Origin: Candidatus Obscuribacteraceae bacterium
GTDB taxonomy: Bacteria > Cyanobacteriota > Vampirovibrionia > Obscuribacterales > Obscuribacteraceae
Direction: 5' to 3'
Assembly (NCBI GenBank): GCA_044226015.1
Contig: JBGAHS010000006.1
Location: forward strand, 384,001-448,000
DNA: 64,000 nt
Every line of letters begins with the position of its first letter. Position 1 is the stretch's first letter. Shown one piece after another: positions 3,539 through 22,650 of the stretch. The notes below the pieces were generated by a model that saw only the letters and a list, made by a program, of their open reading frames with translations, did not search any database and was not told where the DNA came from. The position numbers were made by a program, and so were the translations under genes.

Positions 3539-3837
3539 CAATGAAGTCGGACTCTCTTCTGGAAGTGAGGCATGAAAGGCTCAGGATCCGAAACAAACCG
3601 GGCTCAATACCGCACCCAGACCCAGCACTTAGACTGGTCATGGCCGAAATCAGCCACCAACTCAAACCAGAGAACTCATGACATCCACATAATCTTGGGT
3701 CAGCCTAAAGTTAGCCCGAAAAGTCCTGCTATAGCTGGAACGAGCGCCTCCAAAAGAACGAGTGTTACAGCAGATTCACGCAATTAATTGCCAACAGGTT
3801 TTAGCCTCTGGCTACCGTGGTAATATGAATTAGCTAT

Positions 3838-3909
<72 letters not shown>

Positions 3910-3934
3910 TTTTTTCTTTTTGAATTGTCTAGCA

Positions 3935-3968
3935 AGACTTTTCGCGGTTGCGAAAGGTCTATTTTATT
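3935..3968 (+). terminator. Intrinsic terminator after tRNA-Asn, supplied by the element
   Basis: agacttttcgc-ggtt-gcgaaaggtct hairpin followed by attttatt. Confidence 0.65.
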
Positions 3969-3997
3969 GCCAAAATAGGCAGCGAAAATTTATGCAA

Positions 3998-4015
3998 ATA
4001 CTCCAATGATACTCC
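3998..4015 (+). promoter_or_regulatory. Putative integrase arm-type sites (left end)
   Basis: atactcc twice at 11-bp spacing; atgatactcc recurs at 13749-13758 near attR. Confidence 0.55.
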
Positions 4016-4905: not shown

Positions 4906-4980
4906 CACGCTGACACAGCGTTAGAAGAGCAACTAGAAGCGGGCACAACTTTAACGCAAGTTGATTGAATACAAGTTGAG

Positions 4981-5748
4981 TTGAATGTGCACGCACCCGA
5001 AATTCCTCAAAAAAAGCGATTAGTCGCCTACTACCGTGTCTCTTCAGAATCACAAGAAGAGAACAATAGTATCGACTTGCAGAAGCGCAAAATAAGTTGG
5101 GCTGCAGATAACTACGGTTTCGAGATCATCGCAAACATCGAAGCTGTCGAAAGCGCGACATGCCAAAGTGATGATCGTAAGCACTTCAAGGAAGCACTGG
5201 AGATAATCAGATCAGCCAATTGCGATGGCTTGATCGTCAATGATCTTGATCGTTTCTTTCGCAATACGGAAGAAGGCTTGAGGATTGCCAGGAAGGAGTT
5301 TCTTGAAAGTGGCAAGACGCTCATCACCTTGAATCAAAATATAGACATCAGCACTGATGACGGCTGGTTTATGTTTGGCGTAATGCTTCTATTTGCAGAG
5401 AAAGAAGCAAAAACAAATCGATACCGAATGCGCGAGGGGAAGAGGTCTAAATCGAGAGCGAATAAAGCAGCCTACCTTAATGGAGCCACGCCGTATGGCT
5501 ATAAATCAGCCGGACCAAGCGGTAAGCGTTATTTGCAAATCGATCCAAAAGAATATCCATGGCGCGAAAAAATATTCTCCTGGCGCAGCGAAGGACGTTC
5601 ATACAAATGGATCGCACAAGAACTAAACACAAACGGTGTGAAAACAAAACGCGGTCGACAATGGCGAGACACCACAGTCAGGATCATCCTGATTCGTCCG
5701 TTAGCCCTCCAGGAAGCTCTGCCTCAAATACCGCCTGAAATAGCATGA
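4981..5748 (+). CDS. Serine recombinase A (catalytic domain plus short recombinase DNA-binding domain)
   Basis: YYRVSS catalytic Ser, DLDRFFRN, GATPYGY, SYKWIAQELN..GVKTKRGRQW. Confidence 0.92.
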   Translation: MNVHAPEIPQKKRLVAYYRVSSESQEENNSIDLQKRKISWAADNYGFEIIANIEAVESATCQSDDRKHFKEALEIIRSANCDGLIVNDLDRFFRNTEEGLRIARKEFLESGKTLITLNQNIDISTDDGWFMFGVMLLFAEKEAKTNRYRMREGKRSKSRANKAAYLNGATPYGYKSAGPSGKRYLQIDPKEYPWREKIFSWRSEGRSYKWIAQELNTNGVKTKRGRQWRDTTVRIILIRPLALQEALPQIPPEIA

Positions 5749-5972
5749 ACCAGAAACATCTAACTCTGATAGTTAATAATGTTCTGCTGGCGGGTCCTTT
5801 CAGTTCAGCGGGTTGGTCATTTGAGTACAGGGTAATCAAAATTGCAGACAAGGATGGAATGCCCTTTGCAGAAATACAAGAGCGTTTCCAGCTAGAACGA
5901 AATTGGACACACTGCATGTTCATACCGTGGGAGATCTGGCAGCAAATCAATTCAAAAGGCGAAGCTAGATGA
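5745..5972 (+). CDS. Small hypothetical protein between the two serine recombinases
   Basis: 75 aa; ATGA overlaps with both neighbours. Confidence 0.65.
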   Translation: MNQKHLTLIVNNVLLAGPFSSAGWSFEYRVIKIADKDGMPFAEIQERFQLERNWTHCMFIPWEIWQQINSKGEAR

Positions 5973-6718
5973 GCATGAAAAAGTTCATCGCCTTCTACAG
6001 AGTATCTAGTAATTCGCAAGAAGAAAACACAAGCCTGGAAATTCAAAAAGCGCGAATTAACTCTTGGGCAAAAGCGTGCAACCATCAGATTGTTCACGAG
6101 GTGGAAGCAGTTGAATCTGCCACGCGAACCATAGAGAGGCGGAAACTTTTCAAGCACGCGCTCGAACTCATGGATTCAAGTAACTGTGATGGCTTAATTG
6201 TTTACGACCTGGATCGTTTTTTTAGAAACGCGGAAGAGGGCTTGCGATGTGCTCGCATCAACTTTCTCGAACAAGGCAGAGTCTTATTGAGCTTAAATCA
6301 GAACATCGACATCAGCACACATGACGGCTGGTTTACTTTTGGAATATTTCTGCTTGTAGCCGAGAAGGAAGCCCGCACGATGCGTCGCAGAGTGACGGAA
6401 GGCAAATTACATAAAGCCGCCTCATCACTATGCGAAGGACGAAAAGCCTACATCGACGGAGCGCTACCATTTGGTTTCTCTTCATCGGGCGTGAGTGGCA
6501 GGCGTGAATTAGAGATCGACCCTTCAGAGTACCCCTGGCGTCAAAAGATCTTCGCCTGGCGCGCCGAGGGTCGTTCTTACAAATGGATCGCGCGCGAGCT
6601 GAACAGCAGGGGCGTAAAAACTAAGCGCGGGTTGGAGTGGCGTGATACCACGATACGACTAATGCTTGTGAGACCCATGGCTCTTCATGAGCTGATGAAC
6701 CAGGCGATCTCAAGTTAA
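5969..6718 (+). CDS. Serine recombinase B (paralogue of A)
   Basis: FYRVSS, DLDRFFRN, GALPFGF, SYKWIARELN..GVKTKRGLEW. Confidence 0.92.
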   Translation: MSMKKFIAFYRVSSNSQEENTSLEIQKARINSWAKACNHQIVHEVEAVESATRTIERRKLFKHALELMDSSNCDGLIVYDLDRFFRNAEEGLRCARINFLEQGRVLLSLNQNIDISTHDGWFTFGIFLLVAEKEARTMRRRVTEGKLHKAASSLCEGRKAYIDGALPFGFSSSGVSGRRELEIDPSEYPWRQKIFAWRAEGRSYKWIARELNSRGVKTKRGLEWRDTTIRLMLVRPMALHELMNQAISS

Positions 6719-7113
6719 AGTTGCAATGAGCGCTTCAAGTCAGACTCAAGACACGAAATCTGCTTCAACAGCCGGACTAGATAAGCGATATCTTTATTAG
6801 TACGCAATACAGAGTCTTTGTCTAGCCTTTGCCTAACTTCGACATGCACTCTATGCAGCACTTTCAAAGTTTCAAGCTTGCATCGTGTAGTGTCGCCAAC
6901 CTCAGCAATTAGTGTTTCAGTTCGCGTGGCACGGTAAGCGATACGCTTTAATCGCCAATCTTCGCTCTTGCACCATTGCTCGACCTCACCTTTCGAAACC
7001 CCAAGCTGTTGCGCAATCAGCCCAAAGCGCGGCTTTTTCATGGCAACATACATGTTCAAGGCTGTCTCTCGCACAGGAACTATTTCAGCAAGATTATTCA
7101 CGCCCATTTCCAT
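6715..7113 (-). CDS. HTH protein resembling terminase small subunit N-termini (Terminase_5/DUF1804-like)
   Basis: ALNMY..IAQQLGVSKGEVEQWCKSEDW..R pattern followed by a helical region. Confidence 0.5.
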   Translation of the reverse strand: MEMGVNNLAEIVPVRETALNMYVAMKKPRFGLIAQQLGVSKGEVEQWCKSEDWRLKRIAYRATRTETLIAEVGDTTRCKLETLKVLHRVHVEVRQRLDKDSVLRTNKDIAYLVRLLKQISCLESDLKRSLQL

Positions 7114-7321
7114 TCTCTTTCATAGCAAGAGCCTTCTCTGTGAGCTTAGCCAGCCTGAAAATCGTGTTTGCCGATTTTGCGAGAATATGAAGCTCGGCAT
7201 TGTTCTGAATATCGCTATCTAGCTTAGCTCTAGCCGCATCCAATCTAACCTCTATTTCTCGGAGAACAGCATCAGCTGCATCAATAGCTTCATCCCGAAA
7301 TTCATTTTTTATCGTTCTCAT
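7094..7321 (-). CDS. Hypothetical helical protein
   Basis: 75 aa; overlaps the downstream TerS-like gene on the same strand. Confidence 0.5.
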   Translation of the reverse strand: MRTIKNEFRDEAIDAADAVLREIEVRLDAARAKLDSDIQNNAELHILAKSANTIFRLAKLTEKALAMKENGNGRE

Positions 7322-7414
7322 TTCAATTTCTCTTTTACGGAATCTCTTTATGACTTTATCTGAAAACGAATCATTGTTGAAGACTTAACATCGTAATGCG
7401 TCTTACTGCAAACA

Positions 7415-7493
7415 TGGCGCCAGCGAAAAAAAATATCGCCATTGCAAAACATTTCTTTTCACGGTCTCTGTGGCGCTCTGGCGCTATGGCGCT
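7415..7493. repeat. Iteron-like tggcgc cluster
   Basis: Tandem octamers tggcgctc-tggcgcta-tggcgctg from 7471, plus atggcgcc and atcgccat, in A/T-tract context. Confidence 0.55.
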
Positions 7494-8104
7494 GACTTTT
7501 TCTAATAGACAAAAATAGGAGATTTGAACTATAGAAAGAGCATCCTTTGCGTTTTTTTTCCTGGGATTTTAATTGGCACGGGGATATTGCGGGCGGAAAA
7601 CGCCCGCTGCACGGAGGACCCTTCACTCGATTCCCCGCCCCTTGGCAGCCGGAAGCGCCCGCTGGGCGGTGCCCCCGAGATCCCCCGCCCCTTGATTCCA
7701 GGGCGCTCCAAGCTATCTACTATCACGCGAAATTGCTCGTCCCTCCCCGTCGTTGCTGGGTTTCCAGGTCTTGACACAGCTGAATTGACACGTCGTTCTA
7801 ACAGCGTGTTAGCGCGAGGTATGCCCCGCCCGCCGCACGCATACGCCTGCTGCGTTAATTAATCCCATAACGCCATAGTCTCTCCGCCCAGGCACCGTGG
7901 GCGGTACCACCATTAAGTACACTCAACATGGCGAATTGTATTTTTTACTTCGTCATCTCCCTCTCTCATGAACATTGCGGACAACGTTAGGAGCGAAGAT
8001 ATACAACACACTACGGTGCTTACCACGCTGTACACTGTTAAGTCTTGCTTCTTGGCGATCAATGCAGTTCACTGAAATTGCATAGGTTACAAAGGAATTC
8101 ATCA

Positions 8105-8656
8105 ATGAAGGAATCAATAAGCAAACTACTTCTCAGTGAAACAGAAGTGACAGAAAAGTATGGATTGACTTCGCAATGGCTTAGGCGTGCGCGAATGGCT
8201 GGTGTTGATCACGGTCCACCATTCATCAAACTCGGCAGCAGGATTTTTTATCAAGAATCGCTGATCGATAAATACCTGCAGGACAATCTGCATACTTCAG
8301 GCGCTTGCGGTAAAGAAGAATCCAGCCGGATTGATCGAGTATTGAGCCAGCCTTTTTGTACACTCGGATTGAGTATGCCGTTAAGAACTGACTTGCAGTC
8401 CTTAGAAACCAAAGAAGGGATGCTTTTCAGCTGTGATGTGGATTACAACAAAGACTATTTGACCACAGCTCACATATACAGATTCAATGGTGCGCTCGTG
8501 GTATCAGTAGATTCAGAAAAGCTAGCATCTGAATATCCCAAATGTTTCGGACAGATCATTGCGCTCATGAATGGAAAACTAAAAGACCTTCTAAAAAGCA
8601 ATAGCCTGAATAAGCGTTTTGAAAATGTTGGTGAGATTAGCGCCATAGCGCCATAA
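8105..8656 (+). CDS. AlpA/Xis-like winged-HTH protein with C-terminal extension
   Basis: LLSETEVTEKYGLTSQWLRRARM..GPPFIKLGSRIFY; ATG at 8105 within ORF 8045-8656. Confidence 0.7.
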   Translation: MKESISKLLLSETEVTEKYGLTSQWLRRARMAGVDHGPPFIKLGSRIFYQESLIDKYLQDNLHTSGACGKEESSRIDRVLSQPFCTLGLSMPLRTDLQSLETKEGMLFSCDVDYNKDYLTTAHIYRFNGALVVSVDSEKLASEYPKCFGQIIALMNGKLKDLLKSNSLNKRFENVGEISAIAP

Positions 8657-8851
8657 ATTCTGAAAGCGGTCTGGAGCAAGAGCTTTCCAGTGAATGATGC
8701 TATCGCCATATTGCGTCGTTCAGTTGTTACGGAAAAAACAGGCTTGTCATATAGAGCAATTAACCGGTTACAGACATGTCGCAGCCGGATAACTTATGTG
8801 GATATCAGGCGTGACTTGGTCACCCCAGCAAATGCTAAAAAGGACAAAACA

Positions 8852-9064
8852 ATGACGCAAGATAACTCAGATCTGATGAGCAGACCGGAAGCAGCCAAAT
8901 ATTTAGGTGTAAAAATTGCAACGCTTGAAGATTGGGCTTGTAGAGGACGTTATGGCATTCCATATACAAAGATTGGGCGCTTGGCGAAATACCGAAAATC
9001 TGATCTTGATGCCTTTATTGAAAGTCGCACCGTTAATGGTGCCAGTGAAGAAGATGCAAATTAG
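8852..9064 (+). CDS. Excisionase-like HTH_17 protein
   Basis: LMSRPEAAKYLGVKIATLEDW..IPYTKIGRLAKYRKSDLDAFIE; aagga RBS before ATG 8852. Confidence 0.85.
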   Translation: MTQDNSDLMSRPEAAKYLGVKIATLEDWACRGRYGIPYTKIGRLAKYRKSDLDAFIESRTVNGASEEDAN

Positions 9065-9917
9065 TCAATTGAAGAATCTAAAAGCTACCTCAACAGGATT
9101 CATCGCCTCCTGCCCTGCGCACGACGACAAAAAACCATCGCTATCTATTGATAGTAGAAACGGAAAGCTTTTAGTTTATTGCCACGCCGGATGTCCGCAA
9201 GATCGCGTGATGGAACTGCTGGATTCTGATGTAATCGGCAAGCACTTAGCGAACAAACCCGATTCCGCGATTGCGGACGAAAAGAAAAGAGAAGCCATTC
9301 GCCGGGTATGGGAGGAAGCGAAGCCAATCAAGACTTCGGATCTTGCCGCAACGTACTTGAGAAACCGAGGCATCAACCTCATGGAGTTTCCCGAATCGTT
9401 AAGATTTCATCCATCAGTAAAAGCCAAAGTAGATGAAGTGTTTATGTCATTTCCAGCGATGCTAGCTCGATTTGACGATAGCAACGGAGCAATGATTCAA
9501 GTTCATAGGACGCTCCTAAGCGCAGATGGCAGAAAGGCAAATATAGAATCTCCGAAGCGCATGATGAGTTCGCCGTCAGGCAACAACACCAGAGGCGGCG
9601 CCATAAGGCTGTTTCCCGCTGGTCGCCAATTGGGAATAGCAGAGGGAATTGAATCAGCCCTGGCGTGCAATTTAGCGACATCAATCCCAGTATGGAGCTG
9701 CTACTCAGCGACATGCATGGAATCCGTTGTCATTCCGGATGCGGTAGAAGAATTGTATGTGTTCGCCGATCACGATTCAGCAGGAACCAAAAGTGCGCGC
9801 GCAGTCGCCACTCGGTTAGCGAGGCAAAAGTTAAAGGTAAAAGTGTTAGTCCCGCCCACGCTTGGGCAGGATTGGCTCGATGTATGGAATGCTCACAATG
9901 ACATATCAAATGAATGA
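9054..9917 (+). CDS. Zn-finger/Toprim DNA primase (satellite/plasmid type)
   Basis: CPAHDD..PSLSI..CHAGC zinc finger, YLRNRGI, VHRTLL, IAEGIESAL, FADHD Toprim motifs. Confidence 0.88.
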   Translation: MQISQLKNLKATSTGFIASCPAHDDKKPSLSIDSRNGKLLVYCHAGCPQDRVMELLDSDVIGKHLANKPDSAIADEKKREAIRRVWEEAKPIKTSDLAATYLRNRGINLMEFPESLRFHPSVKAKVDEVFMSFPAMLARFDDSNGAMIQVHRTLLSADGRKANIESPKRMMSSPSGNNTRGGAIRLFPAGRQLGIAEGIESALACNLATSIPVWSCYSATCMESVVIPDAVEELYVFADHDSAGTKSARAVATRLARQKLKVKVLVPPTLGQDWLDVWNAHNDISNE

Positions 9918-11457
9918 GATCATGCAAGCGGTACATAGCACACCGTTTTTTGATCCTGACGCCAAAGACGAAAACAAAAACAAAAGCACAGAAAGATCTA
10001 ACAAAAAAGCAGGAGAGATTCTTATCGACTGCACCACGTCGTGGGAAACCTGGAGATGCCCCTTAGGAAAAAGCTTTGTGAGTTTTGAGGCGAATGGACA
10101 TATCGAGCACCACGGAGTGCGCGACAACACCACGGCGCTAAAGCTCCAGCTTGAATATTACAAGAGCACCGGAACTGCGGCGAAGAAGTCTAATATTGAT
10201 GAATGCCTGGACAATCTCGAAGCTAAAGCGCTATTTGAAAACAGAGTTTATAGGACTGCGATTAGAGTCGCAGAATGGGAAGGCTCGATATATCATGACC
10301 TGGGCAACGACAAATGGGAAGCGATTAAAATAACTGCAGACGGTTATAACCTCGTTGATTCAAAGGAATTATCACAAACAGGATTTCGCTTTTTGCGCAA
10401 GCAGGCAATGCTTCCTCTGCCCTATCCACAAGAAGCGAGTACAAATCTGCAAGAGCTTTTTGCCATCTGCGGAATTCAAGATCAAGCAAATCAAATCCTG
10501 TTGAGTGGAATTCTAATTCAAGGTATCAATCCGAACGGACCGTATCCAATTTGCGTGATCCGAGGTACACAAGGGACGGGTAAATCGACTTTATCACGAA
10601 TGATTCGCCGTATTATTGATCCGAATCAAGCGGAAATCCGCTCTCTACCAAATGAAGAAGATCACTTTGGAATTCAATGCGAAAACAGTCATTTTTCTGT
10701 GTTCGACAACGTAAGTACACAGGACCTTCCGAGATGGTTTTATGATACGTGCTGCCGCCTAGCCACAGGCGCTGGTGCTAGCAAGCGCGCACTGTATAAA
10801 AATAACGACGAGGTTATCCGCAACATCTGTCGCCCTCTACTGATAAACGGAATAGATGATATGGTTGCCAGAGGCGACTTTCTAGAACGCGCCGTCATCA
10901 TCGAACTCAAACCTATTGATCCAGGTCGAAGAAAAACTCAAAGAGAAATCGAGGAAGCATTCGGAGAAGCTCATCCTCGGCTTTTGGGCGCTTTGTATCA
11001 TTTAACCTCCAGTGCACTCGCCAACAGAAATAAAGTCAGACTGAAAGAACTTCCAAGAATGGCTGACTTCTGCCAATGGATAACTGCATGTGAAGACGCC
11101 CTTCAATGGGAGCCAGGAACATTTGCAAGGACTTTGAAAGCGAACAGCCTGGATATGAATGACCTGGCGCTTGAATCATCTTCATTGGGATCTGCAATTA
11201 GGAAGGCTCTGCCTCTCGGAATTGAATCAACGAAAGATGCGGATCTCGAATACAAGAGCGCCAATGAAATTTTGAAAGTGCTAAGTAGATATAATGAAGA
11301 TCCAAACGACAGGACATTTCCTAAAACAGGCGCTGCTTTAAGCCGTCAGCTTAAAAGACTCGTTCCGCTGTTGAACCACGAGGGTTATGAGGTCGAGTTT
11401 CATAGAAAAGAGACAAATCTCAGACCTTTATCTATCCGGAGGATGAAGACCGAGTAG
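9910..11457 (+). CDS. P-loop ATPase, SF3-like replicative helicase
   Basis: Walker A GTQGTGKS, Walker B SVFDNV, RALY, LINGI, DFLERA; coupled to the primase. Confidence 0.8.
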   Translation: MNEIMQAVHSTPFFDPDAKDENKNKSTERSNKKAGEILIDCTTSWETWRCPLGKSFVSFEANGHIEHHGVRDNTTALKLQLEYYKSTGTAAKKSNIDECLDNLEAKALFENRVYRTAIRVAEWEGSIYHDLGNDKWEAIKITADGYNLVDSKELSQTGFRFLRKQAMLPLPYPQEASTNLQELFAICGIQDQANQILLSGILIQGINPNGPYPICVIRGTQGTGKSTLSRMIRRIIDPNQAEIRSLPNEEDHFGIQCENSHFSVFDNVSTQDLPRWFYDTCCRLATGAGASKRALYKNNDEVIRNICRPLLINGIDDMVARGDFLERAVIIELKPIDPGRRKTQREIEEAFGEAHPRLLGALYHLTSSALANRNKVRLKELPRMADFCQWITACEDALQWEPGTFARTLKANSLDMNDLALESSSLGSAIRKALPLGIESTKDADLEYKSANEILKVLSRYNEDPNDRTFPKTGAALSRQLKRLVPLLNHEGYEVEFHRKETNLRPLSIRRMKTE

Positions 11458-11461
11458 GCGT

Positions 11462-12160
11462 CTATCTTGGTTCGAGAACGGATCGGACTCTTTCGTAGGC
11501 ACGATCAACGTCCAAAGACTCCAACGAGATCATCAGCTTAAAATCAGGAGACTTTAATAGCTCAGCAAGGCTCTCAATAATATGAGCAGAATCATTTTCC
11601 TGGGCAAGAGCAAGCAATTTCAATAAAACTGCGAGGCACTTTGTGAATACTCCATTAATTGAATTTTTTACCTCCTGCTCCACGCTTGCAAAATATGTAC
11701 GCAAATCAGAAGCTATGAAATGTTCTGCCTCTCTTGATTGTCTTCCGCGCTTAGTAGGTACACGATCAAGGGCTAATTCGCAGATCCTATTGGTTGTAAT
11801 CAATAACTCCTCTGTATGATCCAATAGGCACCGCCCTTGGTGCCAGTCTGGTATTAGAATATCCATTATCGAACTTTCTAAAATGGTGCGACTTGAAGGA
11901 CTCAGTTCCTGTAAAGAATTTAGCGCAGCTTCAATGGATTTACTGAGAATCGCAAGTTGCTTTCTGCTCTCGTTTACTGTACCAATCTCCGCAGCCTTTA
12001 TGAACATACCTGCAAGGACTTTCGGTAGGTCGCGGCGTTGTGCTTCTGTGAGAAGCAAACCACAATCAGTAGCCCAAACGCCAGCCACAATGCCGAACAA
12101 TTCTTCGATATCGCCTCCATATATTTCTAAGATCCATTCAGTTGGAGGCAAATTTGCCAT
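11462..12160 (-). CDS. Hypothetical protein
   Basis: 232-aa ORF inside the element; KRGRQ basic patch; no family recognised. Confidence 0.6.
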   Translation of the reverse strand: MANLPPTEWILEIYGGDIEELFGIVAGVWATDCGLLLTEAQRRDLPKVLAGMFIKAAEIGTVNESRKQLAILSKSIEAALNSLQELSPSSRTILESSIMDILIPDWHQGRCLLDHTEELLITTNRICELALDRVPTKRGRQSREAEHFIASDLRTYFASVEQEVKNSINGVFTKCLAVLLKLLALAQENDSAHIIESLAELLKSPDFKLMISLESLDVDRAYERVRSVLEPR

Positions 12161-12288
12161 AAGCTTTGCGGTTCCTGCGCGTAGAGATTATCAAGAAATG
12201 CGTAATGTAAAACGCCACTTGAGGAAGTATTGTTTTAGCACTTTTTTGCGTGTTTTATCAACAATAAGCGCCAGTAACAGGAGGGATT

Positions 12289-12498
12289 ATGGAAAGAAAT
12301 TCAAAGAAGCTTCTGACCGAAATTGAGGTGGAAATCACGTATGGAATCACGCGCCATTGGTTGCGAAGAAAACGAGTGGAAGGCGGCGGACCAGAATTCT
12401 TCAAGATCGGAAGGAATGTCCGTTACTCAGCCGAAAAAATCGAAGCTTTCATATCTGGAAGCCAGCAAAGCTCAACAAGCGCATTTTCTCAGCGCTAG
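12289..12498 (+). CDS. AlpA/excisionase-like HTH protein
   Basis: LLTEIEVEITYGITRHWLRRKRVEGGGPEFFKIGRNVRY; ggagg RBS; convergent with the integrase. Confidence 0.85.
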   Translation: MERNSKKLLTEIEVEITYGITRHWLRRKRVEGGGPEFFKIGRNVRYSAEKIEAFISGSQQSSTSAFSQR

Positions 12499-13799
12499 CA
12501 TTCTGATGTTTCAACTTTCGAAAGAATGAAATTAGTGATCCTTTCCATCGGTACTCTGAGTCGCTCGATGTCAGAGACTATATAACCAGCCGTGACATCA
12601 TTGCTAGTACTATGATTCAAAAGACGCTTAAGAGGATATCCCTGAATATCGAGAGCTTCAGCAACAGTAGCAAACGTCCGGCGAAGGTCATGGCAAGTAA
12701 ATTCAATACCAGTCTTTCTCGTAACCTCCATCATGGGTTTTCTTGGATCAACCAGATGACCTGATGCGCCATCGCCCGGAAAGACGAACGTTGATGAGCT
12801 TTCCTTCTTAATTTCAAGAAGGAAATTCGAAACATGAGGGGTAAGAGGTAGCGTATGGACAGAGCCATTCTTGGTGTCAGTTACTGTAAGCGTGGCTGAC
12901 TTAAAATCAATATCTTTCCATTGAAGCGCCGAAGCCTCTTCTTTGCGTAGCCCAGTAAACAAAAGCAACTTCAAATAATTTCTCACTATCATATTCTCAA
13001 GCGTCTCTACGGCATCATGCCATGGCTTCAGCTCATGAGCCTTCAGTACAGTCTGCCTTCGAGGAATTTTATTCCAAGCCTTGATTTGAGATATTCTGCT
13101 AACGGGGTTGATGCTGATTTGCAAATCCGAATCATCAAATTTATGTTGAGCGTAATTAAATAACGCACGCAAGATGCGCATGACTTGATTTGCTTGTGCC
13201 TTCCCATTCCAATCACTACTTCGTCTTTTAAGTCCTGTATTGCCAAGATCCTTGAAGCGTCGCTCAATCATATCTTTGGAAATCTCAGTTATTGGTCGGT
13301 CCATCCAATCAGACACGCAACGATTTAGAATCTTCAGATATCCACGTTTCGTCGATTCCTTGAGGCTTGAGCGATCTGCAAGGTAGTTTTCCAAAACGAA
13401 ACGGAGAGTCGCAGATCTCCGAGACTGAACTATTCTTTCCTGCCGCAACGATTCTTTAGCGACTGCATTTGGGTCAATTCCTTTTGCGAAATCCCCGAGA
13501 GTTCTTAATGCGAGTTCTCTCGCTTGATGGTGGGTGATGCTGCCCAACTTGCCCAGGCTGACCCGAATTACCTTACGACTCCCTTTGATACGTCCCTGTT
13601 GAAAAAACATCGCACCAGTAGGAGTGACACGTACCCCAAACCCTGACGGTTCACCTAAAAAGTGATAACCAGGCTGGGAGAGCAGCGCATCAATTGTCTT
13701 TTTTGTGATCTTGGGCATGACTGGAGTATCCATGAAACTTACACTCATATGATACTCCATTTTCGGATAAGTCTTGCCTTGTTTCACTAAAACATGCAC
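12495..13799 (-). CDS. int: P4-like tyrosine integrase with N-terminal arm-binding domain (true start probably 13718-13733)
   Basis: GFGVRVTPTG arm domain; catalytic FTGLRKEE, TKNG, HDLRRT, LLNH, TAGY; adjacent to att. Confidence 0.95.
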   Translation of the reverse strand: MHVLVKQGKTYPKMEYHMSVSFMDTPVMPKITKKTIDALLSQPGYHFLGEPSGFGVRVTPTGAMFFQQGRIKGSRKVIRVSLGKLGSITHHQARELALRTLGDFAKGIDPNAVAKESLRQERIVQSRRSATLRFVLENYLADRSSLKESTKRGYLKILNRCVSDWMDRPITEISKDMIERRFKDLGNTGLKRRSSDWNGKAQANQVMRILRALFNYAQHKFDDSDLQISINPVSRISQIKAWNKIPRRQTVLKAHELKPWHDAVETLENMIVRNYLKLLLFTGLRKEEASALQWKDIDFKSATLTVTDTKNGSVHTLPLTPHVSNFLLEIKKESSSTFVFPGDGASGHLVDPRKPMMEVTRKTGIEFTCHDLRRTFATVAEALDIQGYPLKRLLNHSTSNDVTAGYIVSDIERLRVPMERITNFILSKVETSEC

Positions 13800-13838
13800 A
13801 ATTCAATCCATCCGCATAAGCTTACCCTTGCAGGCTTT

Positions 13839-13878
13839 ACCGAATCTTGCCAAAACCGACCAGACTTCACCAAATCTT
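13839..13878 (+). repeat. Four 10-bp phased imperfect repeats next to attR
   Basis: accgaatctt-gccaaaaccg-accagacttc-accaaatctt. Confidence 0.5.
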
Positions 13879-13899
13879 AGAATCAACGTTGCCCATATA

Positions 13900-13945
13900 A
13901 CTGTTAATCACTTGGTCGCTGGTTCGAATCCAGCCTCGGGAGCCA
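13900..13945 (+). repeat. attR: displaced tRNA-Asn 3' fragment ending in CCA
   Basis: 43-bp identity with 3867-3909, then CCA; no tRNA 5' half. Confidence 0.95.
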
Positions 13946-14091
13946 TTTTTCAGCGATTGGTTAATCGCAAAATCGAATAAAGTGACCTATAGATGACCGC
14001 CGAATATAAATTGGTGGTTTTTCTTTTTGCTGCTTTTAACGCGGAATGAATTCTGCCGATTTATGTTCGTCATGATGCCCCTTTCTTTCTC

Positions 14092-15114
14092 TCAATTTGT
14101 GTGAGGCTGCGAGCAGAACATTTGGTAGTATTCGGCCCACTTTGACTTTGTCATTTGCCAATCCGAATAAATGCAAATTCCTTGGTAACAATTAGGCGGC
14201 TTTTCACCAAGTCCAGCGTTGATCCCGCGCAGTGAATGAAATAGGTTTTCCGTATTTGGGTCATGATATCCAGCACCTGCATCATCATATGCTGGCAGAC
14301 CCAGCAGCACCTGCTTCGGGCTGTACCAGGCTAGAACATCATGTGTCCAATCTTTCATTTGTTGCTCGTACAGACCTGGAGAACGCAGTGATGTGTCATA
14401 CATCATTACTACTGCTTGATCGATAAGAGCAGCAACACTGCGTGAGTAGGATTCATCCCAGTGCACATCAGCATTCTGCTGCCAGAAAGTTGGTGGTGGG
14501 TACGCTGCAATAGATATTAGCTTACCTTCTGGTATCTGATTTCGAAGTTCTTGCAGCAGCAGCAAATAATCATTATTTCCTGAGCGTAGCGGTTCAATAT
14601 TTACGTGAATGCCAGCCAATCTTGGATGTTTTTCTAAAATACTTGCACATGACTTTGCAAATGCTTTTCTCCAGCGGTCATCATGCAAAAAAACGGTTTG
14701 CTTGTTCACACCACCGACCCAAGGCATTACTTGAAATCCCTGGAAGTTGTCTAAGAATCGTTCAACTTGAGTATCGTTGGAACAGGCAATCTGTCCAGCT
14801 TTAGCAGCGGGGCAAAGATGTGGAAACACATACTTTATGTGCGCATTTCTCAGTCGATCAGATGTTTCCTTCAACATATCTGCATCACGAAATGTTCTTG
14901 ACTCTTTTTTGTTTTCTATAAACCATGTATCGTCCCCCAGCCACCCATGTTGCATCCAGAGTCCATTAGCCATGCGGTCATACCGCCCGTCACGAACATC
15001 AAGTCCAGGTGACCAGAAGAAATAAACCAATGAAGCCAGAATCGCCAAAACACACAGTAACACACAGTGAGTTAACCAATTTTGAAAGTATTTTCTGCTT
15101 GTATCGGTGTGCAC
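14092..15114 (-). CDS. Membrane-anchored glycoside hydrolase family 18-like protein
   Basis: GIHVNIEP variant of DxDxE, VMMYD, LLGLPAY; N-terminal TM; GTG at 15114 with GGAGG RBS. Confidence 0.65.
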   Translation of the reverse strand: MHTDTSRKYFQNWLTHCVLLCVLAILASLVYFFWSPGLDVRDGRYDRMANGLWMQHGWLGDDTWFIENKKESRTFRDADMLKETSDRLRNAHIKYVFPHLCPAAKAGQIACSNDTQVERFLDNFQGFQVMPWVGGVNKQTVFLHDDRWRKAFAKSCASILEKHPRLAGIHVNIEPLRSGNNDYLLLLQELRNQIPEGKLISIAAYPPPTFWQQNADVHWDESYSRSVAALIDQAVVMMYDTSLRSPGLYEQQMKDWTHDVLAWYSPKQVLLGLPAYDDAGAGYHDPNTENLFHSLRGINAGLGEKPPNCYQGICIYSDWQMTKSKWAEYYQMFCSQPHTN

Positions 15115-15445
15115 TGCGAATGCCCCTCCCAACCGCCATATTACTATTATTCTCGAATGAAAGCGTGCCGGTACATGAAATGCCAATGGTAATCTCTTCG
15201 AGCCAATCATCACCAGAGCGTGAGCGAGCATTACCAGAGAGTTGTACGAAGGACAACCGATAGGTAATGCAGATATCGTGTTGAGTGTCAATAGCCCAAG
15301 ATCGGGGACAGCAGAGGCACGCGACGTTTTTCATCGTCAGTTGCCTTCCATACGCAATCAGCGCTATTGTTTCTAGAGGTGATCCCAATGCGGCCGCGAG
15401 CGCTGATCCCTCCTAGAAGGAATTAAGCGCCAAGCTCCACTCAGC

Positions 15446-16394
15446 TCAAGCGGAGACTATGTCGTCGCGGAAAGGCGTTCCAGACTTAAGTACGCCAAAT
15501 ATAATGTGCAAAAGCTTTCTCATAGAGGCTCCAACGGCCTTCATTGGAACCTTTCCATTCGCGATTAGGTTTCGATAAAATCGCGCAATGACGGGATTGT
15601 GATCTTTGCCACTATCGCCGGCAGAAGAAAGAGTGCTGAACGCAATCAGCATTTCCTGTTTTTGGATAGTCGAGTTCGTCCACGGATGGAGCTGCCAGAT
15701 CTGATTTCGCTGGGGCTGAACCTGCAAATGCCACCAGTTGTTTGGCATTCTCAAACAATTCAGTGAAGGAACTTCAGTGAGAATCACGTTTGCTGTTTCC
15801 TCACCAACTGCTGGAATAGACATGATCGGTTTCCGCTTCTGCTGCAGGTCGGATGCTTTTTGTAAAGCCTTTCAATTTGTCTTCAATTCGACCGATTTCT
15901 AGATCAGCACTTGAGGATGCGGTTCACCGAATCCATGTCAGCATGGTTTGCTTTCTCTGTTGATAAGCGGTTCTCTCCGCAACCCCTGAGCGCGTTAGAT
16001 CGTAGAGCGCCTCACCAGCATTTGTAATTGACGCACTTCGGGAGCTGGTGGGTGCCGCAGCTTTAGTTCATTGTTTAGCGCCGTCTGAGTACCCCAGCAT
16101 CGACTTTGTCTGTTTTGGTTCCTTCCAGCTCCTCTGAGCAAATCGCCTGATACCGTCAAGTTCGGCAGCTAACAGACTCGCCTGCCAGTGAAAGAGAAAA
16201 ATCAGCGAGGTCATATAATACGCACCCGGTGGCTTCCTGCAGAACAATGCGTTCTCAACTCCGATTTTTTGCAACCAGCGCAAGCCCTGGAAGCCTTTTT
16301 CGGTTTGTGAAACTGATGGTGTTTCTCTTTCCCTGTCACCTCCACGACGCTCGAAATCTTTCGAGATGTCGATTCCAACAAAACAGTCGAACAT
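15446..16394 (-). pseudogene. IS110 DEDD transposase, frameshifted as assembled
   Basis: GIDISKD; C-terminal HNPVIARFY..MRKLLHIIFGVLK spread over several frames. Confidence 0.8.
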
Positions 16395-16439
16395 GCAATC
16401 CCTCTTCATTCTGATTTTCTAGTTATAAGACGCATGGTA

Positions 16440-16600
16440 ATGCCTGACTTGGTCAACCTACTAGTCAGACTCTCACTCAAAGTGGGTCTTAGATATCGTC
16501 CGACCTGCATATCAGGATAGGGAAGGCAAACAAATCTGCCATTACAGGATCAAGTCCTAAAGATAAACACTGTTTTGCCTTCCCCCTACCTCAGCGTCCC
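16440..16600 (-). ncRNA. Putative IS110 bridge RNA, copy 1
   Basis: Target-binding-loop stem 16521-16583 with guides TGTTTATCT and GGCAG; donor guide ACGATATCT at 16491-16499. Confidence 0.75.
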
Positions 16601-16897
16601 GAAGTAGAGCTTGATCAGCCGGAGTTCCAGTGTCAAGCCATCGTTATCGAAGATAGCAAGATAAAAGGTCTCTCCTCGTACCTCGAATGCTACTACTGAC
16701 CGGGCTCTATAGAGGAGATTGACAGGGCTCGCCAGTCGAAATCCACTGCAAAAGACCATATATGCATCCAAGCTCTACATCTAAAGAGGAGAACAAATCT
16801 GCTGGATAAGATCTAGGGTGAACGGACTAGATGAGGTTCTTCTTCCAGTAGTTGGAGCCACAATGCTGTGCAGATTTCGCGTATGCGATAATGTCCA

Positions 16898-19198
16898 TTG
16901 CTAGTCCGCTCAGCTATATTGACGCTTCAGTGTATGTTTAAGATCTATCCAAAAGAAGAGACAATAATTCGAATCTGCGCGTGCCTTCTTTTGGCTTTAG
17001 GCAGTTCCGTTTTCTCGGTCTTTCTCGCGCCAGGTTATGGCAATGTGATTTTTATTGAAGGGGGGCCAAGCGGGAAAGAGCACGGAGAAATTATAATCAA
17101 GGACGACTCGGATAGAGCAACGTTAAAGGACTGGGGACCGACACTGAGAAGGTTGCAGCTTATCGGAGACCTCAACGATAATGACTACGACATCTTAATA
17201 AAAATGCCATTTCTCAAGAATCTCTGGCTGGGTGATTCGAAGCTAACTTGCGCAAGGCTTGAACGCCTGAACAACTGCATGCAGCTGGAAGAGCTTGAAT
17301 TAGCCAATCCAAATTTGAAAAATGATTCTATGGACGGAATGAGACCGTTGACCAGAATACGGGAACTGGGCTTGATAGATTGCCAGGATTTGCTGAATAA
17401 GCAAGGTAAGCTGAATCTTCATCCGTTTCCAAGCATATTGAGCCTGAGAGTCTCGGCACATGGAGACGACTTTAGCTGTGATAGCTTGTTATCTCACAAG
17501 GATACCTTAGAGAAGTTCTGGGTTATGTGGACCGTGAAAAATCCACAATCACTCGGAAAGATGCGCAAACTAAACGATCTAACGCTGTGGTTTCATCGAT
17601 TTGATGTAGAAACCAACCACGCCATAAGGTCGCTAGGACAGCTGAAGACGCTGGTGCTATGTGCAAACGGACTCAGCACCGATAGTTACGAAAGTATAGG
17701 AACACTTTCGAATCTGAAAAGACTGGAGCTGAATAATGAAAGATTGACTGGGAAAGAGTTTCAATCAATTGGAAGGCTAAGAAATCTTGAGTACATCAAT
17801 CTAGACAATGGCTCTTATGTTGATAGTGATTTTCAAAAATTGAGTGGTCTCAAAAAGCTCAGGGAGCTGACATGCCGGGGACCGATCAACGGTACAGGGT
17901 TAGCAGCTTTTACGAATACGAAAATCGAGAAGCTAGATATATCAGGCGAGAAGCTCACGTCAAGCGGATTTGCAGCTATATGTGGCTTGAGTAATTTGCA
18001 AAAGCTGACTATTTGTCCTTGCAAAAGTCAGCCGGAATGGTCCAACGTGCTTGCAAACCTTTCGCAGCTACAAGAATTCAACGTTGCTTGTCCTGCCACT
18101 GGTGCCGATTCATGGGCCAGAGCTCTAGCGCAATCAAGCAATCTTGAGAGTGTAAATTTATCAAATAGTGACTTTTCTGATGAAGGGATTAGATTCCTTC
18201 TGAGCTTGCCTCATTTGGAAAAACTGAATATTGGAAATACAAGGGTAACGGATAGAGGGCTGGACATGTTGAAAAATATGCAGCAACTTCAAGATCTGAC
18301 AGTTAGTCACTGTAAAATTTCTGATGCTGGAATGAAGTCGATTGGTGCACTGGCCGGATTGAGGCAATTACATTTGGAATATACGCCAATTACCGATGAA
18401 GGATTGGGATACCTGGTGCCATTGTCTAATCTTGAATCGCTGCAACTTGATGGAACAGAGATAACTGGGATGGGACTCGAACATGTTGCCAAACTTCCAG
18501 CTCTCCGAAAGTTAAATCTAAGAGAATCAACAGTTCGCAGCGATTCAATCTCATTCCTTGTGGGGACGGGCATTGAATCCCTCGATATCAGCCATACTGA
18601 AATTAGTGAACATGCATTACCATCGTTAAGATCTCTTGCTAAGCTGAAAAATCTTCAGATGGACGGCTGCGGATTCATGACCAAGGAATCAATTCCGGCG
18701 CAACCGCAAGGTTACGTGATCCGGTTTCCAGCTGCACCGGCTAACATTGCACATCCTCAATATTGTGCACCGGCTTCACCAGCGATAAGCAGAGACCAGT
18801 TGTTGAATGATTTGAACAAACTGAACGCAGATTTGGATGCGCGCCTACATCCAGGCATATATATTTGCAGCAACATTGCACGTGGCTGGACAGAATCGAT
18901 TTTCGAACTATACAATCGGCGGGCCTTTGTGCACAATGCACTCAAGAATTTTGATAAAGCCTTGGCCGATGCAAATGCAGCGGTCCGATTGAATCGGCTT
19001 TCTGTTGCGGCGCGCAACAACAGAGCGTTAGCATACCTCAGATTGGGTCAATACGAAAATGCCTTGCTCGATCTTGACCGTGCTCTGGAAATCGATCCGA
19101 AGTGTGGGGAGTCATGTACGCTGCGTAACGAAGTCTTAGATAAATTGAACCAGAAAGGCATGACCGATCGCTTGGAAGACAGATCACATATCAATTGA
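16898..19198 (+). CDS. Leucine-rich-repeat protein with C-terminal TPRs
   Basis: Many LxxLxL..T.ITD.GL repeats; TPRs YNRRAFVH..A, RNNRALAY..LGQYENA; start uncertain. Confidence 0.9.
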   Translation: MLVRSAILTLQCMFKIYPKEETIIRICACLLLALGSSVFSVFLAPGYGNVIFIEGGPSGKEHGEIIIKDDSDRATLKDWGPTLRRLQLIGDLNDNDYDILIKMPFLKNLWLGDSKLTCARLERLNNCMQLEELELANPNLKNDSMDGMRPLTRIRELGLIDCQDLLNKQGKLNLHPFPSILSLRVSAHGDDFSCDSLLSHKDTLEKFWVMWTVKNPQSLGKMRKLNDLTLWFHRFDVETNHAIRSLGQLKTLVLCANGLSTDSYESIGTLSNLKRLELNNERLTGKEFQSIGRLRNLEYINLDNGSYVDSDFQKLSGLKKLRELTCRGPINGTGLAAFTNTKIEKLDISGEKLTSSGFAAICGLSNLQKLTICPCKSQPEWSNVLANLSQLQEFNVACPATGADSWARALAQSSNLESVNLSNSDFSDEGIRFLLSLPHLEKLNIGNTRVTDRGLDMLKNMQQLQDLTVSHCKISDAGMKSIGALAGLRQLHLEYTPITDEGLGYLVPLSNLESLQLDGTEITGMGLEHVAKLPALRKLNLRESTVRSDSISFLVGTGIESLDISHTEISEHALPSLRSLAKLKNLQMDGCGFMTKESIPAQPQGYVIRFPAAPANIAHPQYCAPASPAISRDQLLNDLNKLNADLDARLHPGIYICSNIARGWTESIFELYNRRAFVHNALKNFDKALADANAAVRLNRLSVAARNNRALAYLRLGQYENALLDLDRALEIDPKCGESCTLRNEVLDKLNQKGMTDRLEDRSHIN

Positions 19199-19412
19199 TG
19201 AAGCCGGTTACAGCGACTCGCCGTAAGGCAGATATCGTGTTGAGTGTCAATAGCCCAAGATCGGGGACAGCAGAGGCACGCGACGTTTTTCATCGTCAGT
19301 TGCCTTCCATAAGCGATCAGCGCTATAGTTTCTACCGATGATCCCAATGCGGACTCGAGCGCTGATCCCTCCTGGAAGGAATTAAGCGCCAAGCTCTGTC
19401 GAACAACTCAGC

Positions 19413-20375
19413 TCAAGCGAAGACTAGGTCGTCGCGGAAAGGCGTTCCAGACTTAAGTACGCCAAATATAATGTGCAAAAGCTTTCTCATAGAGGCTCCA
19501 ACGGCCTTCATTGGAACCTTTCCATTCGCGATTAGGTTTCGATAAAATCGCGCAATGACGGGATTGTGATCTTTTGCCACTATCGCCGCAGAAAAGTGCT
19601 GAACGCAATCTAGCATTTCCTGTTTTGGATAGTCGAGTTCGTCCACGGATGGAGCTGCCAGATCTGATTTTCTTTGCGGGAACTGGGACACGAAATGCCG
19701 CCAGTTGGGGCAAATTTCTCCGGCAATTCCAGTGGAACTTCAGTGAAAATCCCGCGTTTGCTGTTTCTCACCAACTGCTGGAATAGACATGATCAGTTTC
19801 CGCTTCTGCTGCAGGTCCGGATGCTTTTTGTAAAGCCTTCAATTTGTCTTCGAATTCGACCGATTTCGATCTAAACGCCAGGATGCGGTTCACCGAATCC
19901 ATGTCGCATGGTTTGCTTTTCTCTGTTGATAAGCCAGTTCTCTCCTGGCGCCCTAATTTTGTTGAGATCGTAGAGGGCGCCTCACCAGCATTGTAATTGA
20001 CGCACTTCGGGAGCTGGTGGGTGCCACTGCGCTGGATTCATTGTTCTTGCCAAATGGAAATTGCCCCAGCATCGACTTTGTCTGTTTTGGTTCGCTTCAG
20101 CTCACTCTGAGCAAATCGCCTGATACTGAGTCGGATTCACGACGCTAACAGACTCGCCTGCCAGTGAAGAAAAATCGAGTCATACCAATACGCACCGGTG
20201 GCTTCCATGCAGAACAGTGCGTTCCTCAGCCTCGATTTTTTTGCAACCAGCGCAAAGAAGCCCTGGAAGCCTTTTTCGGTTTGTGAAAACTGATGGTGTT
20301 TCTCTTTCCCTGTCACCTCCACGAAACATCAAAGAAATCTTTCGAGATGTCGATTCCAACAAAACAGTCGAACAT
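19413..20375 (-). pseudogene. IS110 DEDD transposase, frameshifted as assembled
   Basis: RuvC-like D/E/DD and Tnp-domain serine motifs split by multiple indels. Confidence 0.8.
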
Positions 20376-20419
20376 TAATCCCTCTTCCATTCTAGTTTTC
20401 TGGTTATAAGACGCATTGT

Positions 20420-20580
20420 ATGCGCACAACCTGATCAACCTGCTAAATTCAGACTCTCACTCAAGTGGTGCCAGATATCGTCCGACCTGCATATCAGGAT
20501 AGGAAGGCAAACAAATCTGCCATTACAGGATCAAGTCCTAAAGATAAACACTGTTTTGCCTTCCCCCTACCTCAGCGTCC
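20420..20580 (-). ncRNA. Putative IS110 bridge RNA, copy 2
   Basis: Stem 20502-20564 with the same target guides; donor guide at 20473-20481. Confidence 0.75.
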
Positions 20581-21126
20581 CGAAGTAGAGCTTGATCAGC
20601 CGGAGTTCCAGTGTCAAGCCATCGTTATCGAAGATAGCAAGATAAAGCGAGTGTCTACGATTCTCTTGAGACACCATATGCGGTGCTTTTGGGTATCGAA
20701 GATACGAACGCAAGTCTCATCCGTCAGCGGATTTTATTGGGCTATTCCGCATGTCACTGTCGTCGTCTGCCCGAAAGCTGGACAGACCTGAGGCAAGAAT
20801 AAAAAATGGCTCGCGCACGTCTGCCTCTCCGTCCTAGCACATGCTCCAAGACAATTTGCTGCTCGCGAGTGCTCGCGTATGCCTACCGGCGTCCAGCTGC
20901 CGGGCTCCAGCTGCCGCCCTCGGCAAGTGACGCGCAAAGTAGGCGCCACTTGTTGTGATATAGTGGGAAAAGCCTGAAGATGATAAGAGAGATATTGAAC
21001 ATGAAGTCCTCGGCACGACGTTTTAGCTAATCAATTCAATCGATGAGTGGACCGCCGTCTTGCCTTTGATTAGAGGCGGATAGAAAGACATGCTGTCATT
21101 TTACTTCGATTTGAGGAGATACTAAG

Positions 21127-22650
21127 ATGATTCCGTTTGATGATATTCGACGGTTGCAGAACCGGTCGTGGTCAATTCCATTAGTTGAAATGATTGAGCG
21201 CGGAGAAGTCGAGGACGCTGAAGAGATTTGCCGCACGATTGGAGCCCTGGAAGATCCTAGACTTTCTGGCAGATTGCTGCAAATCCTGGAAGATGTTGAG
21301 CGCCCCTCCGTGGTGCGAGAACTCGCAGCAGACGCTTTGAATGAAAGTGTGAATATAGACACCGCAGAGCAACGTCGGCAATGGTGGCAGTCGGGAGACT
21401 TTTTGCTAATGCGGCACGCTGTCCGTATGGCAGAAAGCACGGAGAACGATTTGCTTCTGGAAATATTGAAAGATGGGTCGAGTCCCTTCTACGTAGACGC
21501 GCTAAACGTAATTCAATGGTGGGAAGAGCCCTGCTTCCAAATTTTCTTGGCGACAGCGCTGAAACATGATGATCCCTCTGCCAGGGAAACTGCTGCTGAT
21601 TGTTTGGTCTGGGAACAACCGAACGGAGCAGCTACCGATCTACTGCGTTTAGCTGCCGATGCGCGATATGAAGATGTGGCGATTGCGGCAATGAATACAT
21701 TGAATTATTACGCGACGCAGGAAGTACTGTTACGGTTTACTGAATTGCTGCGAGACGGTCCGGAGGAACTTCGCGAGAACTATCAGGCGGGAACTGAATA
21801 TGTTCGCCAAGAATTTATTGACGGCTGCAGATGGGCTATGCGCAGGGACACGGCCGTGCGCGATCACTTGTTGATGTGGATGCAACCAGTAATACACTTA
21901 TTCAACCCTGAGGATTTCCAGATATCGGATCGTGCCAGCACGAACTCCCGAGGGACAAAGACAGTTCAGCCTTCGATGACGGTTAATGAGATTATTGCGG
22001 ATCTCGGCGAACCAGACGCATGCTGGGCAGACAAATTGCACAAATACAATGGTAATTATGACTGGTCCCGGTTAGCCGAAGGCGACGCGGTGAGGCTTGT
22101 GCAATTCTTGGCCGCGCATGAGGACGTTAATGTGCGTGAACTCGCTTGTTCGATTGCCGGGCATAGAAAGCTCAGCGATCTGTTGTTCTATTTGTTGAAT
22201 GATCCGACGAGCAGGGTTAAGAAAACAGCCTCGTATCACAGCAGGATGCTGAGCAGAGAGCCACGTTTTCGTGATCGTCTATGGCAAATTTTGATGAGTC
22301 CAGACACGCGAGGATTCTTTGCCACCGAGACGTTGGAAAGTTATTTGGTTCATGCGAATGATCTACCAGTTGATGTGCCCCTAAAAGAATTGGTCTTGGA
22401 AGATAAGCGTCCATCGGTCAAGGCAGCTGCGGTTTCTGCGTTGCACAAACGTGGCGCACGGGACGAAATTGATTCGGTCAGCTGTTTGTTGCAGGAACCG
22501 GCGTTTAATAACTGGTGGGTGCATAGAAACGTCCTCGATGCCTGTGCGGAGCTGCGTATCGCAGCCAGCATCGAGCATCTATTGATGGTAGATGATGTTT
22601 ACCTGCAGATAGCGGTGGCCGAATATAGAGTGGCGATAAAGCGGAGCTGA
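21127..22650 (+). CDS. HEAT-repeat protein
   Basis: Repeated D..VRE.AA.AL motifs; gagga RBS. Confidence 0.75.
   Translation: MIPFDDIRRLQNRSWSIPLVEMIERGEVEDAEEICRTIGALEDPRLSGRLLQILEDVERPSVVRELAADALNESVNIDTAEQRRQWWQSGDFLLMRHAVRMAESTENDLLLEILKDGSSPFYVDALNVIQWWEEPCFQIFLATALKHDDPSARETAADCLVWEQPNGAATDLLRLAADARYEDVAIAAMNTLNYYATQEVLLRFTELLRDGPEELRENYQAGTEYVRQEFIDGCRWAMRRDTAVRDHLLMWMQPVIHLFNPEDFQISDRASTNSRGTKTVQPSMTVNEIIADLGEPDACWADKLHKYNGNYDWSRLAEGDAVRLVQFLAAHEDVNVRELACSIAGHRKLSDLLFYLLNDPTSRVKKTASYHSRMLSREPRFRDRLWQILMSPDTRGFFATETLESYLVHANDLPVDVPLKELVLEDKRPSVKAAAVSALHKRGARDEIDSVSCLLQEPAFNNWWVHRNVLDACAELRIAASIEHLLMVDDVYLQIAVAEYRVAIKRS

Follow-up and report, generated by a model that had tools for sequence, protein, structure and literature searches.

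Where does the IS110 element carried twice by this stretch of DNA insert, and what do its guides recognise there? The window (the whole 64,000-nucleotide stretch analysed) holds two of the three copies found in the genome, and the third lies on contig C8. By its sequence, the element is classed as an IS621-like IS110. Its recombinase combines a DEDD RuvC domain with a C-terminal domain carrying the catalytic serine (PF01548 and PF02371 in Pfam), and it scores 225.6 bits against NCBIfam NF033542, above the cut-off of 140. It is similar to IS621 (E 3e-64) and ISCro4 (E 6e-65), the only two elements among its PDB matches, and residues D9, E54, D96, D99 and S237 are invariant across 21 homologues. 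Membership of the IS1111 group was ruled out, as the guides sit in the left end and not in the right. A search of the window for inverted repeats of at least 40 nt found none. Homologues were sought more widely: a GTDB-wide scan returned 80 loci, all at 50% identity or less, a metagenome scan returned one distant partial locus, and viral scans gave no relative and a single pattern match, by chance. From the labels of the homologues, the host is probably a Melainabacteria (Obscuribacteraceae-like) bacterium.

The left boundary of copy 1 was set by comparison with the junctions of relatives, and the coordinates of all features are collected in Table 1. As assembled, both window copies contain lesions, and an intact 322-aa recombinase (P0122) was found in short-read assemblies. 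Contigs from four short-read runs (three studies), compared on copy 1 only, contradict its assembly at the same many positions; given this recurrent disagreement and the existence of an intact protein, the lesions of the window copies are probably, for the most part, long-read assembly errors. The recombinase of copy 3 has a 47-residue internal deletion that is probably real, because the same joint appears in short-read run X1.

The left end is predicted to fold as a bridge RNA with two internal loops, in which guides complementary to both strands of target and donor are accompanied by handshake guides. An IS110/IS621-type bridge RNA had already been proposed at this place in a sequence-only reading, and such an RNA with loops matching target and donor is well supported. 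The arms of the outer stem (16574-16583 and 16521-16530, minus strand) enclose TGTTTATCT, an inner hairpin (16546-16558) and GGCAG, as described there, and the second loop contains ACGATATCT (16491-16499), identical to the right end of the element (15271-15279). The fold is more stable than those of shuffled sequences (z -2.5 for copy 1 and -3.2 for copy 3), and 16 of the 22 predicted pairs show two-sided changes across 17 IS110 left ends of the family; holding the guides unpaired is predicted to cost the fold 6.7 kcal/mol. An Rfam scan of window positions 12000-22000 gave 0 matches. When the RNA of copy 3 was compared by eye with that of IS621, using the numbering of PMC11208158, the two agreed slot for slot: the target loop runs GU, 9-nt left guide, U, hairpin, GU, right guide, AU, and the donor loop runs GG, ACGAUAUCU, hairpin, positions 157-165, then GUU. 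The left target guide has the layout of the IS621 RNA, with G as its first base in copies 1 and 2 and C in copy 3. The right target guide is one base longer than in two complete relatives (G114 and G088), and a single bulged base would permit it to pair with both GCCTT and GCATT. The right donor guide, overlooked in the sequence-only reading, is intact in copies 2 and 3. A bridge-RNA orthologue is not unusual by itself: such an RNA is predicted in 85.7% of the IS110-group elements of ISfinder (Durrant et al., PMC11208160), and this element is one of thousands. A promoter scan of the linear locus found nothing above shuffled sequences, and no circle junction was present among the joints listed for the four short-read runs on copy 1. 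Elsewhere, a lone 50-nt piece (L199:3590-3639; G091:C233) is 96% identical to the 5′ part of the bridge RNA, with no transposase match within the surrounding 6 kb.

Table 1. Positions of the element, its predicted guides and the sites it occupies (window coordinates unless a contig is named)
Feature	Position	Strand	Remarks
IS110 copy 1	15271..16657	-	From the first element-specific left-end base (16657) to the right-hand CT core (15271-15272)
IS110 copy 2	19230..20638	-	Frameshifted as assembled
IS110 copy 3	C8:673101-674375
IS110 DEDD recombinase gene, copy 1	15446..16394	-	Frameshifted in the assembly
Predicted bridge RNA in the left end	16440..16600	-	Limits approximate; fold, covariation
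Left target guide, 9 nt ending UU	16560..16568	-	Follows the GU linker; a single U separates it from the inner hairpin
Right target guide (8 nt for 7 target positions), then AU handshake guide	16534..16543	-	Geometry from PMC11208158
Left donor guide, same as element right end	16491..16499	-
Right donor guide and GU handshake guide	16455..16467	-	Garbled in copy 1 as assembled
Right-end tip: TTGACA (-35-like), left donor, CT core	15271..15291	-	Putative promoter function
Left target (7 nt) and TT core, copy 1	16658..16666	-	Left target guide 8/9
5′ part of oriT-like site, copy 1	16660..16794	-	oriT profile E 1.7e-8
3′ part of oriT-like site, copy 1: right target, then 8-bp inverted-repeat hairpin	15228..15270	-
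TT core, left target and 5′ oriT-like part, copy 2	20639..20698	-	oriT profile E 1.2e-5
Right target and hairpin of site, copy 2	19203..19229	-

The register in which these guides meet their site required correction. The sequence-only reading had placed a CT core in donor and target alike, predicted the circle junction ACGATAT-CT-TGCTAT and reconstructed empty sites with one T. This register is shifted by one base: relatives have TTTATC-TT-GC(C/A)TTAC at their empty sites, and in G002 the empty site orthologous to that of copy 3 (flank identities 86% and 84%) carries two T following ATC. The CT core therefore holds for the donor and fails for the target, which has TT in the empty sites, as do the left junctions of copies 1 and 2. 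A shared CT core is typical of IS621 and not strictly defining. Counting against unlike cores, a strong preference for CT core pairing is described when CT is present in both partners (Durrant et al., PMC11208160). In IS621 geometry, the right donor guide forms 7/7 pairs with the predicted donor ACGATAT-CT-GCTAT, compared with only 2/7 for the junction proposed earlier, and the left donor guide matches at 9/9 positions. For every copy, the left target guide agrees with its site at 8/9 positions, where the earlier register gives 7/9, and the handshake guides fit the post-exchange rule when two T are assumed. Specificity had been argued from the two insertions in the window, whose junctions by themselves fit either register, and copy 3 had been overlooked; its left junction misfits the earlier register, where its core would be CC, and has the CT form seen in relatives, which fits the two-T register only. 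Outside the genome, all seven left junctions, from four other genomes, read TTATC-CT-GCTATCTT; G114 and G088 are among them, and their right target guides match their own flanks at 7/7 positions. The close relative in G031 has C at guide position 8, and its site reads ATCCTG. In IS621, T9 is nearly invariant and the first core base is less conserved (PMC11208158). Based on the guide pairing, the junctions of relatives, the junction of copy 3 and the G002 empty site, we place the start of the element at 16657 and assign it a donor core of CT and a target core of TT.

One-T alleles nevertheless exist, and they lend something to an arrangement in which the target is TTTAT-CT-GC(C/A), the donor carries an extra T and the element enters degenerate one-T sites, which would also give the target a canonical CT core. 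Three such empty alleles are known in all, one at the copy 1 site in run X2 (window 15150-15275 and 16659-16800), without differences in the compared flanks, and the others in two relatives (L124 and L126). Clean recombination in the two-T register would not yield them; they could be scars of off-register excision or slippage between the 5-bp TATCT repeats flanking the element, or true pre-insertion alleles. The arrangement sits poorly with the pairing of the right donor guide and with the junctions of copy 3 and the seven relatives. In the family, the one-T form of the motif is not enriched (18 matches against 17 in the control), whereas the two-T form has 62 matches against 1. The exact target predicted earlier occurs six times in the genome, and all six sites are empty; the 9-mer TTTATCTGC occurs 121 times. 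A weaker point is that the junction promoter spacer would be 18 instead of 17. We judge this arrangement quite unlikely, and the two-T register is used below.

In that register, all three copies occupy the same base of a conserved motif that the sequence-only reading had missed: the guides are directed at a putative oriT-like nick motif belonging to mobilisation modules, likely the site at which a relaxase nicks the DNA to start conjugative transfer. The motif lies approximately 130-190 bp upstream of genes for a ribbon-helix-helix (RHH) protein and a relaxase, in some cases with a coupling protein. The 62 family occurrences, of the form TTTATCTTGC(A/C)TTAC, are distributed over 39 of the 104 genomes. 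The right flanks of all three copies start with GC(C/A)TTAC and form a hairpin, more than the guide as first proposed explains. A pattern search identified a similar unoccupied site, some 136 bp ahead of a small gene whose homologue adjoins copy 3; the Atlas neighbours of this gene are RHH_1 and NikA clusters, and homologues of the small RHH gene are present in 73 of the 104 family genomes. We surveyed the upstream regions of 32 such loci (the 30 best and two from the pattern search), 29 of which had enough upstream DNA. A(T/C)CTTGC was found at a similar distance upstream of the RHH homologue in 26 of these 29; of the rest, one is copy 3 itself, one has a one-T allele and one a deletion. Many of the loci then carry an ORF with a histidine-triad motif. 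According to Pfam, the module on G000:C2 consists of a NikA-like RHH protein, a PF03432 relaxase (E 6e-8) and a VirD4-type coupling protein, with the motif upstream, and that on G031:C175 gives weak relaxase and RHH matches and a strong coupling-protein match. In the family, the motif thus has the setting of a MOB_P oriT, being intergenic and upstream of RHH, relaxase and coupling-protein genes. The main-family motif TATCTTGC matches the MOB_P nick consensus (C/T)ATCCTG(C/T) (PMC3772185) at 7/8 positions, with mostly T where the consensus has C (ATCTTG versus ATCCTG). The junctions of lineage I, to which this element belongs, match the consensus exactly in relatives. The most conserved bases are the nick-like heptamer, and the flanks diverge. 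By RP4, we take the nick to fall after the G.

An oriT profile was built from 24 IS-free upstream regions and anchored on the two-T motif, so that its preference for this register is partly built in. It matches the left flanks of copies 1 and 2 (E values in Table 1). Over 139 nt, the 5′ oriT-like part at copy 1 shares 78% identity with sequences immediately preceding RHH and relaxase genes in G004 and G006, and the insertion displaces the 3′ part of the site by 1.39 kb; the closest two-T relative of the copy 2 site is in G003. Copy 3 was not detected by the profile in a scan of the genome and gave E 0.047 only when reconstructed, while the C2 origin itself scores E 0.12; the assignment of the copy 3 site rests on position and orthology. 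No empty TTTATCTTGC(A/C)TT site is left in the genome, and the C2 origin, which mismatches the guide, is empty. With no RHH or relaxase gene nearby, copies 1 and 2 occupy orphan sites, usable at most in trans. An RHH gene adjoins copy 3 without a relaxase, in a region that is a decayed mobile island near split tyrosine-integrase genes; around it (L133:17543-19990 and L134:2983-9293), the RHH gene is followed by DUF1963, and a DUF433/DUF5615 pair lies on the other side of copy 3. BLAST, pattern and profile searches of the genome with the three sites revealed no further members of a REP-like repeat family. An integron attC reading of the hairpins was rejected on account of their size (27-45 nt) and boxes (TAC/GTA rather than AAC/GTT); the nearby integrases carry an Arm-binding domain.

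The guides and the register could be right and the conserved site still be something other than a nick site, namely an operator or promoter of the RHH operon or another recombination site. RHH proteins often autoregulate, and the sole NCBIfam match of protein P0121 is a weak RelB-like antitoxin, with nothing clear in Pfam. The motif also occurs in tandem, two or three times at spacings of about 173 or 350 bp, in at least eight family genomes (for example L183:4585,4758,5108 in G019:C6; also L184-L189 and L193), and the regions fetched around these tandem motifs contained no RHH or relaxase match. We nonetheless find this interpretation unlikely, because the site resembles the MOB_P consensus, lies upstream of and divergent from RHH-relaxase-coupling protein genes, is associated through its Atlas neighbours with RHH_1 and NikA clusters, and is most conserved exactly at the nick-like heptamer, with diverging flanks. 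A nick site remains our preferred interpretation of the motif.

A second group of IS110 elements in the family (lineage II), about 44% identical to this element, points to the same motif. Its left target guide is ATCTTGCCT, its right guide is mostly GTAAG, and the guide is present in 11 of the 104 family genomes, with 0 control matches, and additionally in G106. By pattern, the left junction lies inside the motif in 10 of 12 elements; at L301 the match is the guide itself, on a contig without left flank, and L305 is a near match to the motif junction. These elements enter three bases 3′ of the lineage I cut, and in both lineages the nick motif is intact at the left junction. The displaced 3′ half is visible at the right junction in three lineage II elements, and two are directly upstream of RHH and relaxase genes. 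Each lineage is well supported in the tree; their sister grouping (88/92) is below the support mark. Flanks of family IS110s with other guides gave no oriT-profile match, and among 301 genomes of the phylum outside the family the lineage II guide had 4 one-mismatch matches versus 5 in controls. Elsewhere in lineage I, one of the seven junctions (G031:C175) precedes mob genes, with a weak relaxase match (E 0.0015, below the cut-off), and the junctions of relatives that were scanned gave no oriT-profile match. We consider targeting of the oriT-like site to be demonstrated for this element and lineage II and to be suggested for the remainder of lineage I, because just one of seven relatives lies before mob genes. 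A right-junction pattern search gave mostly chance matches; among the 35 listed, 4 had TTGAC upstream, one of which was copy 3. Two other IS110s were observed during these comparisons. On the E. coli plasmid NZ_CP010207.1 (L245), the left target guide and the left junction end in ACATCCT, reminiscent of an IncI-type nick motif, which the right guide does not extend. Another family IS110 has several identical copies in G092 (L218, L230 and L237) and a consistent target, with a shared right flank GGA(T/A)TT..CGAAA that suggests a different repeated target.

Lineage II also bears on whether the target loop matters at all. The insertions could be guided by the donor loop only ("half-match" events), at a site that resembles the donor by chance and with an incidental target loop. 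Half-match insertion has been reported for IS621 (10.64898/2026.08.31.748434), and donor and target here have ATC and GC near the core in common. However, the left donor and the left target are unlike at most positions, lineage II combines the same left donor with a different target guide and lands where that guide predicts, and the right target guides of G114 and G088 fit their own flanks throughout. Such an origin of the insertions is very improbable.

We consider it probable that the left end of this IS621-like IS110 encodes a predicted bridge RNA whose guides are directed at a conserved motif; in the host family, this motif is likely where relaxases nick MOB_P-type transfer origins. By analogy with IS621, the element would circularise (or be copied out) to give the donor ACGATAT-CT-GCTAT, with one T after ACGATATC at the circle junction in the two-T register and two in the earlier one. 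The same analogy suggests that this junction would form a promoter for the RNA from TTGACA, a 17-nt spacer and TATCTT of the left end. The target loop would pair with the bottom strand at (C/T)TTTATC-TT and with the top strand at TT-GC(C/A)TT, with a G·T wobble at position 8 and one bulged guide base, and the recombinase, if it acts as in IS621, would cut after T9, one base 5′ of the presumed nick. The AU handshake guide would pair with donor A6-T7 and the G with target C7, both favouring exchange, as would replacement of the position 8 wobble by a G-C pair after exchange. Because the left end of the element begins with GC, the left junction would regenerate TATCTTG|C and keep everything 5′ of the nick, so that only the 3′ hairpin would be displaced. 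An origin with the element inserted may or may not survive, since its hairpin has been moved away though the nick heptamer is rebuilt. In conjugation, the recipient first receives the DNA 3′ of the nick, and the mob genes arrive last, an order that would put the element at the head of the transferred strand. More tentatively, and with the balance of our judgement against it, at least two IS110 lineages may have programmed guides at the nick site with left ends that rebuild the motif, leaving the origin usable and the element the first DNA sent, and the TT/CT core may bias the reaction toward insertion.

Among known systems, IS621 and ISCro4/IS622 (PMC11208160, PMC11208158, PMC13626964; PDB 8wt6, 9t56) are the closest. 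They share the DEDD and SGSS recombinase, a left-end RNA with the target loop before the donor loop and the same layout of linkers, guides and handshakes, a similar donor, a long left end and a candidate junction promoter. They differ in that the natural target here, judged from sequence only, is an oriT-like nick motif and not a REP, the predicted target core is TT against a donor CT, and the right target guide is one base longer. IS4321/IS5075, which enter Tn21 terminal repeats, and the IS1111-attC elements (PMC11187229) are IS110-family elements that likewise aim at a cis site of another mobile element; unlike the present one, they are of the IS1111 group, carry sub-terminal repeats and enter transposon ends or cassette sites instead of a transfer origin. 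The IME_oriT of streptococci (PMC7563843) also integrate specifically into the oriT of conjugative elements, using their own integrase and relaxase, in MOB_T hosts and with transfer separate from the host ICE, whereas here a 1.4-kb RNA-guided IS without relaxase enters MOB_P-like sites. ISPpu10 (10.64898/2026.03.19.712850) resembles this element in having a DNA hairpin beside the guide-paired bases of its target; in ISPpu10 the stem lies on the 5′ side, overlapping the left target within the REP, and here the hairpin begins at the right target. The MOB_P oriT of RP4 type (PMC3772185) shares the nick-like heptamer and the intergenic position upstream of RHH and relaxase genes, and differs from the putative nick motif here in having ATCCTG where most sites have ATCTTG. 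No description of IS110 guides directed at an oriT turned up in the literature searched, which did not extend to ISfinder, to supplements on bioRxiv or to most subscription papers. The same holds for term searches within 10.64898/2026.08.14.744561, PMC13604230 and 10.1101/2025.05.14.653916. In those supplements of PMC11208160 that were searched, "oriT" had 0 matches and the target motifs were absent.

Other features of the window surround the two copies. They lie in two orphan oriT-like sites of the same orientation about 4 kb apart (15228-20698), with one LRR-TPR gene (16898-19198) between them; the arrangement may be a cassette flanked by nick sites. An island occupies 3837-13942 at a tRNA-Asn, whose 3′ end is repeated over 55 nt at 13888-13942; it encodes a tyrosine integrase and two serine recombinases in tandem, and it carries a Toprim primase-like gene. 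A partly palindromic non-coding element of 140-200 nt (20731-20927) is also found on G000:C12 and, at 74-77% identity, in three same-genus genomes.

The way the register was corrected carries a caution: joining the flanks at the shared CT gave the wrong register, and only empty sites revealed the error. A natural target and donor with unlike cores bears on the matching-core rule used in design. Apart from REP sequences, transposon ends and attC sites, few natural targets of bridge RNAs have been characterised, and guide sequences offer a means to locate unknown oriTs in uncultured bacteria. Mobilisation from an occupied oriT becomes a directly testable question. With guides of this kind, the element would direct its own insertion into the transfer origins of other mobile elements. 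IS110 elements lack any machinery for transfer, and a guide against the nick site would explain how they reach new hosts; if two lineages do so and the origin stays usable, this would constitute an RNA-guided route to horizontal transfer.
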